Sequence record: MH791411.1
Length of the DNA: 64,000 nt
Source: Escherichia phage Ecwhy_1
Direction: 5' to 3' (one strand)
Shown here: positions 10,829-60,477 of the stretch, piece by piece
Layout of the letters: each line of letters starts with the position of its first letter
How positions within the stretch are numbered: position 1 is the first letter of the stretch
Position numbers and translations under genes: made by a program
The notes under the pieces: model-generated
Database searches by the model: none
Told to the model about the DNA's origin: nothing
What the model saw: only the letters and a program-made list of their open reading frames with translations

Positions 10829-11505
10829 CGTAACACCAAATACTTCCCATCTTTACCTACTACATACTGATTACCGCTACGTAGGACGCTATAACTTTCA
10901 CCTAGTACCGAACTTAAGCGAGATGTATCTACCTGCGTATCGTTCGATAGAAGCTGTTTTACGTATGCTTCTGACACAAAGCCACTACCAGTACTGTAAT
11001 GTAGTTTACCATATGCAGTGTTTAGTGCAAGCATGTGACCTTCTTTAACAACAGATACACCAGCAAAGTCTAAAAATTCACTGATGGATTTAGGAATACC
11101 CAAATCGATACGTTGTTGAATTTCATCAAAATCAACATCAATCGGATCATTCACACCATAAAGCTGAATCTTCCAGCCAGGATTTGGGCAAATGTTTTCA
11201 ATAGTTTTGATAAGACGAAGTAGGTTTTCTGGAAATTCCGCATCACGTTCCATTTCAACGAATACCTGATAACGACCATCCAGGTTAGGTGTTTCAGCAG
11301 CTTCAGTATCAACTGCATCAATTGGAGACTTCTCAATAAAAGATGACAGGTCATATGCAGCATCAAAGTTGTTTAGTACTTGAAACATAACAACGATATT
11401 ACTATCTTCAATCTTAGGAGTATATTCATCTACACTAATAATAGGATGAATCAAATCCTTTAGTACTTGTGGACGTAAACCTTGTTCATTTAGTTTCTTT
11501 TTCAT
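10825..11505 (-). CDS. hypothetical protein (226 aa)
   Basis: ORF track; 4-nt overlaps with both neighbours. Confidence 0.5.
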   Translation of the reverse strand: MKKKLNEQGLRPQVLKDLIHPIISVDEYTPKIEDSNIVVMFQVLNNFDAAYDLSSFIEKSPIDAVDTEAAETPNLDGRYQVFVEMERDAEFPENLLRLIKTIENICPNPGWKIQLYGVNDPIDVDFDEIQQRIDLGIPKSISEFLDFAGVSVVKEGHMLALNTAYGKLHYSTGSGFVSEAYVKQLLSNDTQVDTSRLSSVLGESYSVLRSGNQYVVGKDGKYLVLR

Positions 11506-34390: not shown

Positions 34391-34400
34391 TATATCACTC

Positions 34401-34429
34401 CTATGAAATAAATCCCGCCGAAGCGGGAT
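34401..34429 (-). terminator. intrinsic terminator after nrdA (UCCCGC-UUCG-GCGGGA + U-rich)
   Basis: hairpin 34413-34428; minus-strand RNA continues UUUAUUUCAU. Confidence 0.5.
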
Positions 34430-34435
34430 CTTTAA

Positions 34436-49983: not shown

Positions 49984-49992
49984 ATTATATCA
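49984..49992 (-). promoter_or_regulatory. extended -10 element TGATATAAT (minus strand)
   Basis: rc(49984-49992) = TGATATAAT, 36 nt upstream of the ATG at 49948; adjacent hairpin 49995-50015 overlaps the uvsW stop. Confidence 0.4.
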
Positions 49993-50004
49993 TGTACAGC
50001 GGGA

Positions 50005-51489
50005 TTATCCCGCTGTATTTTCCCAATCCTTAACATCTATGATACTATGAGGATATTGTGCTTCCTTATAGTATTGTAAACGTTCACGTAAGTGTTTTGC
50101 ACTATATTTGTTTGTACCACTGATATCAAAGATTTCCACGTGGTCTTTGTCTTCTGCACGACGCAACCCACGACCAATGGACTGTATTGTACGAACGAAG
50201 CTTTTTCCTGGTTCGATTAGAACGACATTATACAAACGAGAAATACTGATACCAGTACTTGCTACCCCATAGGTTGCAATGAGTATTTTGTTATCAGCCC
50301 AGCGAATTTCACCATATGAAGATTCACGGTCTTTCTTTTTGGTTTCCCCACGAACAAATTCTGACTTAGGAATACCCAAAAATTCACAAAGCAATTCACC
50401 AGCTTCAAGTCTATCAACCAGTACTAAAGTGTTTCCAGATTCTGCTAACGCACCTATCAGTGATGCTACATATGCCATTCTATCACGGTCAGTAACTAAG
50501 TACTTCAATTCTTCTGCATATGACGCGAACTTTAAATTACTTTTAAGTTTAATACAGTTCACATTACATGTGCTTAGTATTTTTTTATCTTGTAATTCTT
50601 TAGCTGTGATTTTAAATATCACATCACCAACGTTACATTTAATCTTCGCAGCGACAACTTGGTCTTTAGGGATTGTACCAGTTAATCCCCAGCGAAGTGG
50701 GACGTTATTCATAACTTTAGAGAGTACTTGAACTAATGCATCACCACCAGCACCTTGACACTCATCGACAATCACACAAACCACACCATCAATAAAGTCA
50801 TGAACGTCTTGTTCAGTCAGTTCAATTTCACCTTTCTTTGTTTTCTTCCACAAAGAGTTGAATGACTGCCATGTAGTGATTGTGTGTTGGTGACCAAAGT
50901 CTTTCTGTGCACCATAGAACACTCCAGTGTCAAGACCACACATAACATAGTCATCATATGTTTGCTGCACCAAATCAGTACTAGGTACGATAATCACAGA
51001 ACGTCCATACTCTTGTACCTTCTTGGATAATGCCGCTGTGATGAGCGTTTTACCAGCCCCTGTAGCTGCTAATAATAAACCATGTGGGTTTGCAAGGCAA
51101 GCATTAACTGCGTTCACCTGATGCTCTCTGAGCTTGATTGACTTACCTTCCATGTGGTGTCCAGCACCAAACACAACATCACTAAAAATATCTTCATCAA
51201 TTGGTTCAAAATTGAATCCATAATTGACACGATGATCTTCAAGTTCAATATCAATTTTTGCTTCATCTAAGATTGGCAACAACTTATCCAACATGTGGTA
51301 GTAAGTACTGCCACCTAAGTTCATAAACTGTACCTTACCATCCCAACGACCAATACGACCAGCAGGGGTGAACTTAGCGTATGGAAGTACATATTCTGTT
51401 GCACGAATCATCTTCTGACGAATTGAGGGATCTAGTCCCTCAAATTTACAATTAACCTCGTCCAGTAAGGTTAGCTTACAAGTTTTCAT
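50005..51489 (-). CDS. uvsW: UvsW-like SF2 DNA helicase
   Basis: N-terminal RIGRWDGKVQF (as T4 UvsW RYGNWDGRIRL), Walker A ATGAGKT, DEAD-like VDECQ, motif VI QSIGRGLR. Confidence 0.85.
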   Translation of the reverse strand: MKTCKLTLLDEVNCKFEGLDPSIRQKMIRATEYVLPYAKFTPAGRIGRWDGKVQFMNLGGSTYYHMLDKLLPILDEAKIDIELEDHRVNYGFNFEPIDEDIFSDVVFGAGHHMEGKSIKLREHQVNAVNACLANPHGLLLAATGAGKTLITAALSKKVQEYGRSVIIVPSTDLVQQTYDDYVMCGLDTGVFYGAQKDFGHQHTITTWQSFNSLWKKTKKGEIELTEQDVHDFIDGVVCVIVDECQGAGGDALVQVLSKVMNNVPLRWGLTGTIPKDQVVAAKIKCNVGDVIFKITAKELQDKKILSTCNVNCIKLKSNLKFASYAEELKYLVTDRDRMAYVASLIGALAESGNTLVLVDRLEAGELLCEFLGIPKSEFVRGETKKKDRESSYGEIRWADNKILIATYGVASTGISISRLYNVVLIEPGKSFVRTIQSIGRGLRRAEDKDHVEIFDISGTNKYSAKHLRERLQYYKEAQYPHSIIDVKDWENTAG

Positions 51490-52370: not shown

Positions 52371-52832
52371 TTATTCTAAACGTGCATCTTCAATACCAGC
52401 AGCACGTAGTCTCACAATATTGTTTAACTGAAAAGCTTTCATCTCTAAGGATTTAACAATACTGGAAAACGTATTACGGATATATGATACTTCATTTATT
52501 AGTTCGGATAATTCACAAACTTCTTTATCACCTTCAACATACTTTTTACAGTCAGAAGATGAGAGTGCTCGACGATATGCTTCAAGGAAATATTTAAACT
52601 TTTCAGCTTGTAGTTGACGCATTTCAATTTCTAGCATTTCAAGTACCGCTTCTAGTTCTTGAAGCTGACTGAGACGAGTCTCATGCCAGCCTGGAATCTC
52701 CTGAGCAATCTTTTCAATGATGCCAATCTTTTTAACTTCACGACGAGCTTCTTCAGTTTCTTTTTCGAAGTGTTCAATCATGTCGATTATTTTAGATTTA
52801 TCATCTTTGATGATCCAATGCCAAGGTTTCAT
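52371..52832 (-). CDS. uvsY: UvsY-like recombination mediator (tentative)
   Basis: sits between uvsX and the exonuclease/uvsW genes; C-terminal SSIVKSLEMKAFQLNNIVRLRAAG versus T4 UvsY ALDAIKSRGFAIKHIQDMRAFEAG (from memory). Confidence 0.4.
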   Translation of the reverse strand: MKPWHWIIKDDKSKIIDMIEHFEKETEEARREVKKIGIIEKIAQEIPGWHETRLSQLQELEAVLEMLEIEMRQLQAEKFKYFLEAYRRALSSSDCKKYVEGDKEVCELSELINEVSYIRNTFSSIVKSLEMKAFQLNNIVRLRAAGIEDARLE

Positions 52833-53950
52833 TATTCCTCACTACTTCCAATATCAGTACCAAATGATTCATCACCTTTTTCTTCTTCTTTGACTTCTTC
52901 AATCAAAGGGTGACGTTTGAATTGATTCATAACTAAATCAAGACAAGAATCTTCATTACGCATCCATTCTTTACGATATTTTAGAATCTGTTCACCAGTG
53001 TCAATATCAACGTACATTAGACGGTTACCAGATTTAACGATAAGTTCATATTTCTCGAACATATCTAGTAGACCACTGCGTGGGTCCATACCTTTATCCC
53101 AAGGAATTTTAATCTCAACATCTTCAAATGGTTTGTTGTAACGAGTCTTCATGACTTTACATTTAGAACGAATACCACTTACATCTGAAGTCTTGTTGCC
53201 TTCTTCATCTTCTTTAAGTTTTAGTTTACCCATTGCGATAACCATAGAAGATGCATAAATCAAACCACTACCACCAGATACTTTTGGATCAGGGTTGAAC
53301 ATATCTTGGGATTCATAACTATGGTTTACACAAACCATACCAATGTTAAGTGAACCAATCGAGTTTACGCAGTTGGTGATGTAAGCTTTAAGCTGTTTAG
53401 GTTTGTGACCCATATCACCTTTCAAGTTACCAGCTTTCATCTGGTCATTAGCAACTTCAGTATTCAACATACCAATTGAGTCGATAATGAATAATACTTT
53501 TTGACGTTCTTCTTTAGGAGTATTTTCGTATTCTTTACGATACCCTTCGATGAACTCATAGGTAAATTTAGCAACATCACCAATCATACCCATGTTTACT
53601 TTTAGTAGTTTTTCTTCTGAAGTGTCTACACCTAGTGCTTGTAGCCAATCTGAATCCAATGCGTTCTCGGAATCAATCATAACAACAAAGATACCTTGTT
53701 GTTGTGCTTCACGGGCGATGTTTCCAGAAACGATAAATGATTTACCAGAACCAGATTCACCAGCAAACATTGTTACTTTACCTAGTGGAATACCACGGTC
53801 AAAATAACCACTAATACGATAGTTCAAAGCAAAGTTACCAGTACTAATCCATGTATCAGGATCATGAAAGCCTACGCTAACACCAGTATTCTTTTTAACG
53901 CTACCAGTACTATTTTTTAGAATGTTTGCAAAACCACTTGTCATTTTCAT
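52832..53950 (-). CDS. uvsX: UvsX recombinase (RecA family)
   Basis: Walker A GESGSGKS, Walker B FIIDSIG, C-terminal DPRSGLLDMFEKYELIVKSG as in T4 UvsX DPYSGLLDMALELGFVVK. Confidence 0.85.
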   Translation of the reverse strand: MKMTSGFANILKNSTGSVKKNTGVSVGFHDPDTWISTGNFALNYRISGYFDRGIPLGKVTMFAGESGSGKSFIVSGNIAREAQQQGIFVVMIDSENALDSDWLQALGVDTSEEKLLKVNMGMIGDVAKFTYEFIEGYRKEYENTPKEERQKVLFIIDSIGMLNTEVANDQMKAGNLKGDMGHKPKQLKAYITNCVNSIGSLNIGMVCVNHSYESQDMFNPDPKVSGGSGLIYASSMVIAMGKLKLKEDEEGNKTSDVSGIRSKCKVMKTRYNKPFEDVEIKIPWDKGMDPRSGLLDMFEKYELIVKSGNRLMYVDIDTGEQILKYRKEWMRNEDSCLDLVMNQFKRHPLIEEVKEEEKGDESFGTDIGSSEE

Positions 53951-53969
53951 AATTCGCTCCTTGAATTTT

Positions 53970-54001
53970 ATGAAATAAAACGGGGCAAACTCCGTTGCCC
54001 C
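53970..54001 (-). terminator. intrinsic terminator (GGGGCAA-CGGAGU-UUGCCCC + UUUUAUUU)
   Basis: hairpin 53982-54001 after the gp32 stop. Confidence 0.55.
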
Positions 54002-54019
54002 TTAACTTTTCAAATACTA

Positions 54020-55087
54020 TTACTTACCTTGTTGTTTCAAACGAGCAACTAGTGCAGATGCAGAAAGTTGTTCTTTTGGAGCTTCAGCTACTGGTGCTGG
54101 TGCAGCAGCTACTGGTTCAGCAGCAGGAGTAGGAGTAGCTACTGGTGCTTGCGGAGCAGGAGTTTGTGCAGGAGCAGGTTGTTGTACTGGAGCTTGTGGA
54201 GCAGGTTTGTTTTCACTAATAGTACCAGTTGTTGGTTTTTGTACACCTGCTGGACGGTAAGCGAAAGCCCAACGTGCAGGGTCATAAGGTTTACCATCAA
54301 CAGATGCTTCGAACATTTCTTCGATAGCTTTTAGTTCTTCTGGAGTTGGTTGTTTTGGCATAAAATCATTTAGATTATATAGACCAAACTTTTCAATCGC
54401 TGCCAGTTCTTCTTCATTGAGTGGACGCTCGGACATGGAGAATTGAGACATGTCATAGCTATTGTAACCACCACCATTCTTAGTTTTAACAATACCAAAG
54501 TCACGACCGTGAATGTAGTGAGTTGGTAGTTCTTTGATGCCTGGGTTTAGCAGGATAGATTTAACTTTATCAAAGATATCTTTGTTAGCTAGGATACGAC
54601 GGATTGGGTTTTCTGGAGCAATATCGTCTTTTACTGCTACGCTATCAGGAGCAACGAAACATTGCATTAGATAGGTTTTCTTTTTCCAGTAACGACCAGC
54701 CATTGCTTTCAGTTCTTCGTTTCCAGTTTCATTCGCACTTTGGAACCATTGACGTACTTCTTTAAGAATTGGACATGATTTAGGAACCCACATTTCGTTA
54801 CATGGTACTTGAACGGTAACTTTATCGGTGTGCATACCAACAATACCTTGGAACGTTAGGTTGATCATATCACGTTCACGCCAGAAGAATGGGTTAGACT
54901 CATCAGCATCTGGTAGAAAACGTAGGTTTAGTGGTTCATTGTAAGGGACATTCCAGAAAGCTAGGAAAGAATCGGCTTTACGTTCACCTGTAAATGTACC
55001 ATTCTTCTGTGCTTCTGCTTTTTCTTGTTCAGCTTTTAGTTTTGCACGAATTTCAGCTAGAGTTTGCATATTGGGCTTCCTTGTCAT
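54020..55087 (-). CDS. 32: single-stranded DNA-binding protein, gp32-like, with Pro/Ala/Gln-rich C-terminal tail
   Basis: Cys/His zinc site pattern (PCNEMW...CPILKEV...), ELKAMAGRYWKKKTY as in the T4 gp32 core; C-terminus PAPQAPVQQPAPAQTPAPQAPVATPTPAAEPVAAAPAPVAEAP. Confidence 0.75.
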   Translation of the reverse strand: MTRKPNMQTLAEIRAKLKAEQEKAEAQKNGTFTGERKADSFLAFWNVPYNEPLNLRFLPDADESNPFFWRERDMINLTFQGIVGMHTDKVTVQVPCNEMWVPKSCPILKEVRQWFQSANETGNEELKAMAGRYWKKKTYLMQCFVAPDSVAVKDDIAPENPIRRILANKDIFDKVKSILLNPGIKELPTHYIHGRDFGIVKTKNGGGYNSYDMSQFSMSERPLNEEELAAIEKFGLYNLNDFMPKQPTPEELKAIEEMFEASVDGKPYDPARWAFAYRPAGVQKPTTGTISENKPAPQAPVQQPAPAQTPAPQAPVATPTPAAEPVAAAPAPVAEAPKEQLSASALVARLKQQGK

Positions 55088-55156
55088 TAGTTTGTTTGTT
55101 AAGTTTTAACGGGCTATTAACGTTGATTTGTCTTCATTGACTCATCAACAATTTAC

Positions 55157-55165
55157 ATTATATCA
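55157..55165 (-). promoter_or_regulatory. extended -10 element TGATATAAT (minus strand), proximal copy upstream of gene 32
   Basis: rc(55157-55165) = TGATATAAT; TTGGGA 18 nt upstream as a possible -35. Confidence 0.4.
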
Positions 55166-55232
55166 TGGGATTTTTAACCGTCCCAAGGTTTTTTTACTCT
55201 GTTTGTCAAGGCTCATTGCCCTGACAAACATC

Positions 55233-55241
55233 ATTATATCA
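55233..55241 (-). promoter_or_regulatory. extended -10 element TGATATAAT (minus strand), distal copy upstream of gene 32
   Basis: rc(55233-55241) = TGATATAAT; followed on the transcript by the stem-loop encoded at 55202-55228. Confidence 0.35.
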
Positions 55242-55242
55242 C

Positions 55243-60477
<5,235 letters not shown>

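Follow-up and report, generated by a model that had tools for sequence, protein, structure and literature searches.

Introduction

The operator of gene 32 in phage T4 combines a folded 5' element of ~28 nt, a pseudoknot, with an adjacent, less structured stretch of >40 nt that carries UUAAA/UAAA repeats and includes the ribosome-binding site (PMC535899). Both parts are essential for repression, with gp32 nucleating on the fold and spreading cooperatively from it (PMC535899). Among T4 messages that of gene 32 is the most stable, and its processed 5' end falls immediately 5' of the pseudoknot (PMC3014915). T4 gp32 is indifferent to sequence, and how it selects its own mRNA is a long-standing question; reviews have asked for work on autocontrol across a wider range of relatives (PMC3014915, PMC535899). 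Here we describe the region 5' of a gp32-family single-stranded DNA-binding protein (SSB) gene in Escherichia phage Ecwhy_1 (MH791411.1), analyzed within a window of 64,000 nt. An initial annotation, made from the sequence alone, had noted two -10 elements and a stem-loop in positions 55088-55242 of this window and had suggested that together they could be the counterpart of the T4 operator.

Three further systems resemble parts of this region. In the middle promoters of T4 the place of the -35 element is taken by a phage-specific box, which works together with an excellent -10 box, in many cases of the TGn type (PMC2988021). For the jumbo phages CBB and GAP32, three promoter classes have been predicted with MEME, and one of them, termed 'divergent RpoD-like', consists of a TGAAAC(G) box, N14 and TGNTATAAT upstream of DNA-synthesis genes (PMC5259590). 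The PeSL stem-loops of T4-type phages, which accompany early promoters, have been shown to terminate transcription (PMC2839356).

Putative tandem promoters of the SSB gene

The SSB gene lies on the - strand (54020..55069; 349 aa from ATG 55069), as do all features of the locus described below unless stated otherwise. Its naming as gene 32 in the initial annotation agrees with a match to Pfam PF08804 (29.8 bits against a cutoff of 26.8), and its relatives are annotated as single-strand DNA binding protein. ATG 55069-55067 is the most likely start codon and ATG 55087 a less likely one, because the Shine-Dalgarno sequence AAGGAAG (55076..55082) sits 6 nt 5' of the former and, in tblastn, SSB homologues align from residue 1 counted from it. 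The intergenic region therefore spans 55070-55242, and the 155-nt stretch first delimited (55088-55242) probably stops short on the side of the start codon.

Both -10 elements are exact copies of TGATATAAT, at 55233-55241 (promoter P1) and 55157-55165 (promoter P2), with starts 76 nt apart, just as had been reported. Against an expectation of 2.2, the window has 11 copies of this extended -10 box, a number that 0/100 shuffles reached, and 10/11 copies are on the coding (-) strand. A hexamer occupies the -35 position 14 nt from the TG of each copy (CGAGAC at 55256..55261 for P1 and TGGGAC at 55180..55185 for P2; class consensus TGRGAC), and upstream of it comes an A7 tract resembling an UP element, which for P1 (55263..55269) falls within the final codons of the open reading frame (ORF) upstream, a 'virion structural protein', and for P2 covers 55189..55195. 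As sigma-70 promoters with an extended -10, both score 10/12 in a promoter scan (GAGACA-16-TATAAT plus TG for P1, TTGGGA-18-TATAAT plus TG for P2). The -10 box of P1 is conserved in 121Q and other relatives, that of P2 reads TGCTATAAT in 121Q, and A-tracts are found at the same place in all relatives.

The layout of A-tract, TGRGAC box, N14 and TGnTATAAT, hereafter class II, recurs at ~11 sites in the window and at 13 in ~164 kb of this phage (the window plus an extra 100 kb; the genome is near-identical to vB_Ec-M-J). All of these sites are co-oriented with genes and precede genes of replication, recombination or the late sigma factor, among them the genes for topoisomerase II, FEN/RNase H, a Dda/PIF1-type helicase, a PD-(D/E)XK nuclease and a gp55-like late sigma factor, as well as the primase-DnaB operon and a regulator-DNA polymerase operon. 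None is in the early region (vB_Ec-M-J 1-50 kb), which has 14 canonical TTGACA-N17-TATAAT promoters, and the major capsid gene has the late-type motif TATAAATA upstream. Within the ~164 kb, the SSB gene is the sole locus with class II promoters in tandem. The class is already known from predictions in relatives: P1 (CGAGAC-N14-TGATATAAT) and P2 (TGGGAC-N14-TGATATAAT) fit the 'divergent RpoD-like' type of Rak2-like phages (TGAAAC-N14-TGNTATAAT in CBB), with the same layout and the same link to replication/recombination genes and the gp55-like sigma gene, whereas the sequence of the -35-position box varies between genera (TGAAACG there, TGRGAC here). In the portion of the published CBB promoter table considered here, Porf_272 is followed by Porf_282, so the SSB promoters are apparently not included (PMC5259590).

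Class geometry, the genome-wide class and the tandem arrangement in every relative examined make it very probable that the tandem promoters first annotated are real, and that P1 and P2 are promoters of the replication class (middle-type), read by host RNA polymerase, possibly with a phage factor. Recognition by unaided sigma-70, through nnGACA plus TGn, is possible. The analysis separates this replication-gene class from the canonical early promoters in Asteriusvirus-type therapeutic coliphages. Two antisense matches overlapping P2 were rejected, a terminator-like site on the + strand (55166-55195; TGGGATTTTTAACCGTCCCA and then a T-run) and a promoter-like match on the same strand (55137-55166; TTGACT-18-TATCAT). 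Since neither is conserved in 121Q, both are probably by-products of the A-tract, box and -10 element of P2.

To compare the locus across lineages, we collected the intergenic regions that separate the SSB gene from the structural gene in 14 GenBank relatives and 9 IMG/VR genomes (23 distinct). They span Asteriusvirus, Mimasvirus, Eneladusvirus, Alcyoneusvirus and unclassified lineages, and their SSBs are 59-87% identical to that of the window. In 23/23 there are two boxes of the TGNTATAAT type, or variants close to it, at a distance of 75-110 nt (three in JNE01), each with an upstream A-tract and a TGRRAC-type box, and the sequence between the promoters is largely unalignable. In JNE01 there are three promoter-hairpin units, all beginning TGATATAATG-NN-GT(T/A)TGT, and in three other relatives ~40-50 nt are inserted between the units. 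Such variation in number and spacing fits duplication or recombination of promoter-hairpin units. GAP32, Serratia BF, CBB and Yen9-04 (Mimasvirus/Eneladusvirus) carry a (T)ATAAATA motif like that of T4 late promoters, placed ~25-35 nt 5' of the distal -10 box, which suggests extra late transcription of the SSB gene in those genera; the motif is absent from this position in the window and in 121Q.

Conserved hairpins at the predicted 5' ends

Sigma-70 promoters usually start transcription at about +7/+8 past the -10 box. At P1 and P2 the predicted start is a G 8 nt past each -10 box (55225 and 55149), and since this G is also the first base of a stem, both mRNA isoforms would begin with a stem-loop closed by an AAUGA(A) loop. 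The P1 isoform would have a leader of ~156 nt with hairpin H1 at its 5' end, and the P2 isoform a leader of ~80 nt beginning with hairpin H2.

H1 (55200..55230; -20 to -22 kcal/mol) has a 12-bp stem from 55229 to 55201, or 13 bp counting U55230-A55200, with one G.U pair and the 5-nt loop AAUGA; its stem core GUCAGGGC begins at G55225. The 11-bp inverted repeat annotated at 55202-55228 is real, although it understates the RNA stem of 12-13 bp (55230-55200). H2 (55122..55149; -10 kcal/mol), beginning at G55149, has an outer stem GUUGAU/AUCAAC, an inner stem GUC/GAC and the loop AAUGAA. The initial annotation listed the boxes and the long stem-loop correctly and missed H2, the -35-position boxes, the A-tracts and the A-rich box described below. 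RNA structure prediction bears out its view of a structured leader in that the fold of the P1 leader has z = -4.8, with 0/200 shuffles as stable, and in that H1 is conserved as a structure at the RNA level.

Several comparisons support the last point. Between the window and 121Q, H1 differs by three substitutions, all on the 5' arm and all keeping the pairing through G.U, which points to a sense-strand RNA structure rather than a DNA operator. H1 is also homologous in sequence to the hairpin that follows the gene-proximal promoter in Mimasvirus and Eneladusvirus, with which it shares the core GUC-N2-3-GGC-[5-nt loop]-GCC-N2-3-GAC-AAA. Because MAFFT misaligned the hairpins of the window and 121Q against those of the other genera, pairs were counted on nine ungapped sequences only and the cross-genus test was made with a covariance model. 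Within Mimasvirus/Eneladusvirus, 77% of the cells of the stem are paired, against 20-52% with slid partners, and two pairs are compensatory. The covariance model, built from the other genera only, finds H1 as its best match in 206 kb (21.7 bits, E = 0.008) and nothing comparable elsewhere in the genome.

The loop is conserved beyond the stems that carry it. In 121Q the AAUGAA loop of H2 is retained on two stems that are different yet still complementary (GUC/GAC becoming AGGAAC/GUUUCU). With a strict regular expression, a loop of the form A[UG]G[AG][AU] stands 65-105 nt upstream of the AUG in 16/23 distinct leaders, and in ~21/23 once AAGGA loops and 2-bp variants are included; loops of this type are carried by 11 different stems. 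Nearly every lineage has a hairpin beginning 3-12 nt past each -10 box, and at gene-proximal promoters across lineages the G at +7/+8 is the first base of the stem. Taken together, these comparisons suggest that H1 and H2 are probably real, functional RNA structures.

Other functions for the hairpins were considered and set aside. A leader peptide starting at the AUG of the loop does not fit the Mimasvirus/Eneladusvirus loops (AGGAA/AAGGA), which have no AUG. As an intrinsic terminator on the sense strand, H1 is followed by GAGUAAAAAAACC with no U-tract and is unflagged by the terminator scan, and as a terminator for the + strand it has its T-run before the hairpin. H2 likewise lacks a U-tract and is unflagged.

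An A-rich box beside the ribosome-binding site

Between H2 and the start codon lies the A-rich box AACAAACAAAC (55090..55100), the window version of a clade-wide sequence (T/A)AACAAAGAARC(A/C)AA. In 16 aligned leaders it forms a conserved block 8-12 nt upstream of the Shine-Dalgarno sequence, often duplicated, and the AAGGA of the latter is invariant. The window leader also has three UUAA motifs that are not conserved in 121Q, the conserved motif being AACAAAGAARC. The surrounding 64 nt (55121-55058) contain 45% A and 12.5% G, and with a minimum free energy of -3.4 kcal/mol they show less structure than 95.5% of windows across the genome. Most relatives place the Shine-Dalgarno AAGGAA in the loop of a mini-hairpin of 3-5 bp with co-varying flanks.

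AACAAACAAAC is the sole intergenic copy of the box in the window. No other leader in the ~164 kb has one, and it is absent from the capsid, portal, sheath and polymerase leaders. Allowing one mismatch, AACAAAGAARC is found 12 times against 5.6 expected, barely an enrichment, and the other copies are all inside coding sequence. An enhancer acting genome-wide would not be missing from the other leaders, that of the major capsid gene included, and the box is therefore gene-specific and not a general enhancer.

A candidate autogenous operator

Starting from these elements, their conservation, the pairing-preserving substitutions and the gene specificity of the box, we infer promoter activity, an exact start, message stabilization and SSB binding as the steps of a possible mechanism. 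The base-paired 5' end would be expected to block 5'-end-dependent decay by RppH and RNase E and to yield a long-lived, abundant SSB message; the chances that the 5' hairpins do stabilize the mRNA seem to us evenly balanced. The hairpin would be followed by ~50 nt of weakly structured, A-rich RNA holding the gene-32-specific box and the ribosome-binding site. Surplus SSB could then nucleate on the hairpin and, by cooperative spreading, cover the A-rich stretch together with the ribosome-binding site, so that its own translation stops. By analogy with T4 and RB69, hairpin and A-rich leader may form an autogenous translational operator, a proposal that we make tentatively and regard as somewhat doubtful. 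The region as a whole is plausibly, though still short of probably, the expression-control region of the gp32-family SSB gene, with tandem promoters, 5' hairpins and possibly an operator.

The likeness to the operators of T4 and RB69 lies in the architecture. The SSB leader (55070-55225) sits 5' of a gp32-family gene, as the T4 operator does, and it offers a compact fold of ~26-29 nt at the predicted 5' end of the mRNA. Some 50 nt of A-rich RNA with little structure come next, in which short motifs, conserved or repeated, reach the ribosome-binding site. A 5' structure and a 3' terminator would bound the mRNA, which fits a stable message. The details are different. The fold in the window is a plain hairpin with an AAUGA(A) loop and not an H-type pseudoknot, the motif is AACAAAGAARC in place of UUAAA/UAAA, the sequence is not similar to that of the T4 operator, and the leader has two alternative 5' ends with two different hairpins.

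A number of observations weigh against this reading. H1 is upstream of P2 and missing from P2 transcripts, and it is therefore not the sole operator and at most half of any; the original idea that the tandem promoters and the long stem-loop together could make up the operator is, as stated, not supported on this point. Better operator candidates than H1 are H2, whose AAUGAA loop is conserved, and the gene-specific A-rich box adjoining the Shine-Dalgarno. The P2 leader taken as a whole does not exceed shuffles in structure (z = -1.4). The H stem shows modest covariation, with 5/10 pairs invariant, and the window copy of the A-rich box, AACAAACAAAC, is the most diverged of all. Weak structure at the ribosome-binding site is not exceptional either, since 17% of the translation-initiation regions in the window are equally unstructured, and the Shine-Dalgarno mini-hairpin of most relatives is missing in the window. 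Enumeration of H-type pseudoknots in the P1 and P2 leaders gave only AU-rich candidates of 5+5 bp, matched by 42/200 (P1) and 16/200 (P2) shuffles; the remark in the initial annotation that the arrangement is unlike the T4 pseudoknot is borne out, as no pseudoknot exceeds chance. An Rfam search with cmscan (53900-55400, E <= 10) returned no match inside the leader. The SSB itself is only a distant relative of gp32, and autoregulation by gp32 is not universal, the RB49 leader being without operator features (PMC3014915). The literature searched on Rak2-like phages (phAPEC6, RaK2, fEgEco12, PA5oct) held no transcription start site or transcriptome data usable for the locus. Finally, promoter-proximal hairpins follow 7/14 early promoters, where they reach -13 kcal/mol or lower, and are also seen behind other class II promoters, including those of the polymerase operon and the late-sigma gene. 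The mere presence of a hairpin therefore does not single out gene 32, and a general role of 5' hairpins, for example in mRNA stabilization, is at least as likely for H1.

These points lead to the principal competing explanation, a constitutive high-output leader with no feedback, in which two promoters would raise transcription, the 5' hairpins would do no more than stabilize the mRNA, the A-rich box would serve as translation enhancer or ribosome (protein S1) loading site for a protein required in stoichiometric quantity, and the SSB would have no specific binding to its own mRNA. The generality of 5' hairpins in this phage, seen at half of the early and at several class II promoters, speaks for it, as do the accessible ribosome-binding site implied by A-rich, G-poor, weakly folded sequence next to the Shine-Dalgarno, the display of the Shine-Dalgarno in a mini-hairpin loop in most relatives, the lack of any pseudoknot above chance and the lack of an operator in the RB49 gp32 gene (PMC3014915). 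Yet a stabilizer needs no conserved loop, and A[UG]G[AG][AU] is kept on 11 stems; nor is the A-rich box found in other highly expressed leaders such as that of the major capsid gene. We consider such a leader unlikely on balance, with an appreciable chance nonetheless of being correct, and if that is all the region is, the finding is an ordinary one. The conserved loop might instead bind a factor other than the SSB, such as a phage translational repressor or endonuclease that targets the mRNAs of replication genes, or might act in boxB-like antitermination through the SSB terminator into uvsX. The same loop type closes the hairpin GGUACA-AGGAA-UGUACC in the late-sigma leader, likewise of class II, and uvsX stands without a promoter of its own behind a strong terminator (53982-54001). 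On the other hand, no candidate factor was identified, the loop type is absent at most other class II promoters, and antitermination finds no boxA-like partner. Purine-rich pentaloops on short stems near promoters do bear some resemblance to lambda boxB. A factor of this kind appears improbable.

Less probable again is a role for H1 mainly on late transcripts of the upstream 'virion structural protein' gene, as a terminator/attenuator or a processing or 3'-protection site in the manner of PeSLs. H1 starts 13 nt past the stop codon of that gene, with no other terminator between the two genes; the equivalent hairpin in JNE01 is followed by UUUUCG, true terminators occupy the position in EJP2, Hallingskeid and 7t3, and PeSL stem-loops do terminate (PMC2839356). 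Against this stand the silence of the terminator scan and the GAGUAAAAAAACC that follows H1 in place of a U-tract. Moreover, the homologous hairpin of Mimasvirus/Eneladusvirus comes after the gene-proximal promoter, far from the upstream gene, so that termination of that gene is not its conserved role. Chance matches of AT-rich intergenic DNA to promoter and hairpin patterns, the last explanation, would agree with the mild enrichment of generic sigma-70-like matches in the region (11 against 8.1 expected). They would hardly account for the five-fold enrichment and strand bias of the exact TGATATAAT, or for an architecture conserved across genera despite diverged sequence, and we judge them very improbable.

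Returning to the candidate operator, the arrangement may extend well beyond this phage. It is conceivable, though we think it unlikely, that a cis-regulatory RNA module of a kind not described before is common to the gene 32 leaders of Rak2-like jumbo phages, composed of a 5' hairpin with an A[U/G]G[A/G][A/U] loop, the AACAAAGAARC box and usually the Shine-Dalgarno mini-hairpin, with a parallel module in a distant SSB clade. In that clade (40-50% identity), and independently, a single canonical promoter is immediately followed by a hairpin with a UAAGUA loop, and 2-3 UAGGCA(A/C)A repeats precede the Shine-Dalgarno. No published description of a conserved gene-32 leader module with tandem promoters, loop-conserved hairpins and an A-rich box was found in the literature searched. 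If these leaders are SSB-binding operators, autogenous control of gp32-type SSBs would be ancient and widespread, and interchangeable nucleation structures, a pseudoknot in T-even phages and hairpins here, would make a natural comparative series for how a sequence-blind SSB chooses its own mRNA. The leader described here would provide a pseudoknot-free, hairpin-based candidate operator, conserved across at least five jumbo-phage genera, with a mutable loop, an A-rich box and two 5' ends.

Relation to other promoter and hairpin systems

The T4 middle promoter is the nearest experimentally studied analogue of the class II promoters, to judge from layout. Both combine a phage-specific upstream box with an excellent -10/TGn before replication-period genes, including gene 32 and uvsX in T4 (PMC2988021). 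They differ in that the box in the window is at the canonical -35 spacing, 17 nt from TATAAT, and is not centred at -30.

The early region of vB_Ec-M-J (1-50 kb, including the terminal repeat) is crowded with small ORFs, each behind a near-identical TTGACA-N14-GTACTGTATAAT promoter (for example at 10917, 14603, 14872, 17724, 18218 and 19744). The hairpins found there at 7/14 promoters, of the form GGGGAG...CUCCCC and about -13 to -14.5 kcal/mol, begin 12-13 nt past the -10 box and are PeSL-like. Promoter-proximal hairpins are in this sense a common design feature of the mRNAs of these phages. The promoter-hairpin units of the SSB gene resemble PeSL cassettes in being compact, one PeSL subclass having its stem-loop just 3' of the -10 box, and in varying in copy number between close relatives (2 against 3 units here). 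A strong sigma-70-like promoter with an adjacent stable stem-loop is present in P1 with H1 (-20 kcal/mol) and in P2 with H2 (-10 kcal/mol). However, PeSL promoters are of the early class, lie next to ORFans in hyperplastic regions and have terminator stem-loops (PMC2839356), whereas the units in the window are replication-class promoters of a core gene with hairpins that lack U-tracts, and we do not class them as PeSLs.

Stem-loops at the 5' terminus are known as mRNA stabilizers from the ompA type and from the STAB-SD elements of Bacillus. Like these, H1 and H2 are predicted to begin at, or a few nt from, the 5' end, and the loops of Mimasvirus/Eneladusvirus (AGGAA/AAGGA) resemble a Shine-Dalgarno sequence. 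The AAUGA(A) loop of the window is, in contrast, not Shine-Dalgarno-like, and the start site is a predicted one.

Genomic context and further observations

By nucleotide identity, the window is from an Asteriusvirus-like jumbo coliphage. Eight Asteriusvirus-type jumbo coliphages, among them EC.P1, vB_Ec-M-J, fEgEco12 and Turkey3, match the ~2.7 kb around the locus at 99.6-99.9% identity, and the PBECO4/121Q/G17/phAPEC6 group matches it at ~88%. The - strand holds nearly all genes of the window, in the local order terminase, 'virion structural protein' (55243-56547, -; 434 aa, the upstream neighbour of the SSB gene), intergenic region, SSB, terminator and uvsX (52832-53950, -), an order that is the same in every relative fetched. 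The terminator between SSB and uvsX (53982..54001, -), an intrinsic one with hairpin GGGGCAACGGAGTTTGCCCC and then a T-run, was found by the terminator scan and is annotated in phage G17; both predicted isoforms of the SSB transcript most likely end there. No recognisable promoter is present in the ~30-nt gap between this terminator and the uvsX start codon (uvsX region 52832-53981), and uvsX presumably depends on read-through of the SSB terminator, which would fix the ratio of SSB to UvsX.

A search of PDB sequences with the SSB as query gave no match. The C-terminus of the protein (54020-54230) is a long, low-complexity tail rich in Pro, Ala and Gln, KPAPQAPVQQPAPAQTPAPQAPVATPTPAAEPVAAAPAPVAEAPKEQ, followed by a short basic end. 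The C-terminal domain of T4 gp32 is, unlike this tail, acidic; it mediates protein contacts and modulates RNA binding.

Other leaders behind class II promoters also carry hairpins. In the leader of the gp55-like late-sigma gene (L050:26615-26672), the class II promoter is followed by GGUACA-AGGAA-UGUACC, whose loop is of the same type as the loops of the SSB-leader hairpins in Mimasvirus and Eneladusvirus. At ~210.7 kb of vB_Ec-M-J (L050:45667-45757), GUCAUCUUACAGCGGUUGUGAGAUGAC comes directly after the class II promoter that serves the 'transcriptional regulator'-DNA polymerase operon, and AUUUUUUC comes next (-15 kcal/mol). The promoter-proximal hairpin with its U-tract may be an attenuator; the polymerase gene of T4, gene 43, is autoregulated through a leader hairpin. 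Composite terminator-promoter units occur in the window at 49992-50030 and 34397-34430 (-), where the class II -35-position box CGGGAT is part of the upstream stem (CAGCGGGATAATCCCGCTG in the first, TCCCGCTTCGGCGGGA followed by a T-run in the second).

Upstream of the structural gene, the large terminase (56580-58224, -) is apparently split between two ORFs, 57880-58224 (114 aa) and 56580-57917 (445 aa), which are in different frames and overlap by 38 nt. The terminase is a single CDS (coding sequence) of ~545 aa in G17/121Q, and vB_Ec-M-J annotates a 'terminase large subunit B'; a frameshift, a programmed shift and a split gene are the candidate explanations.

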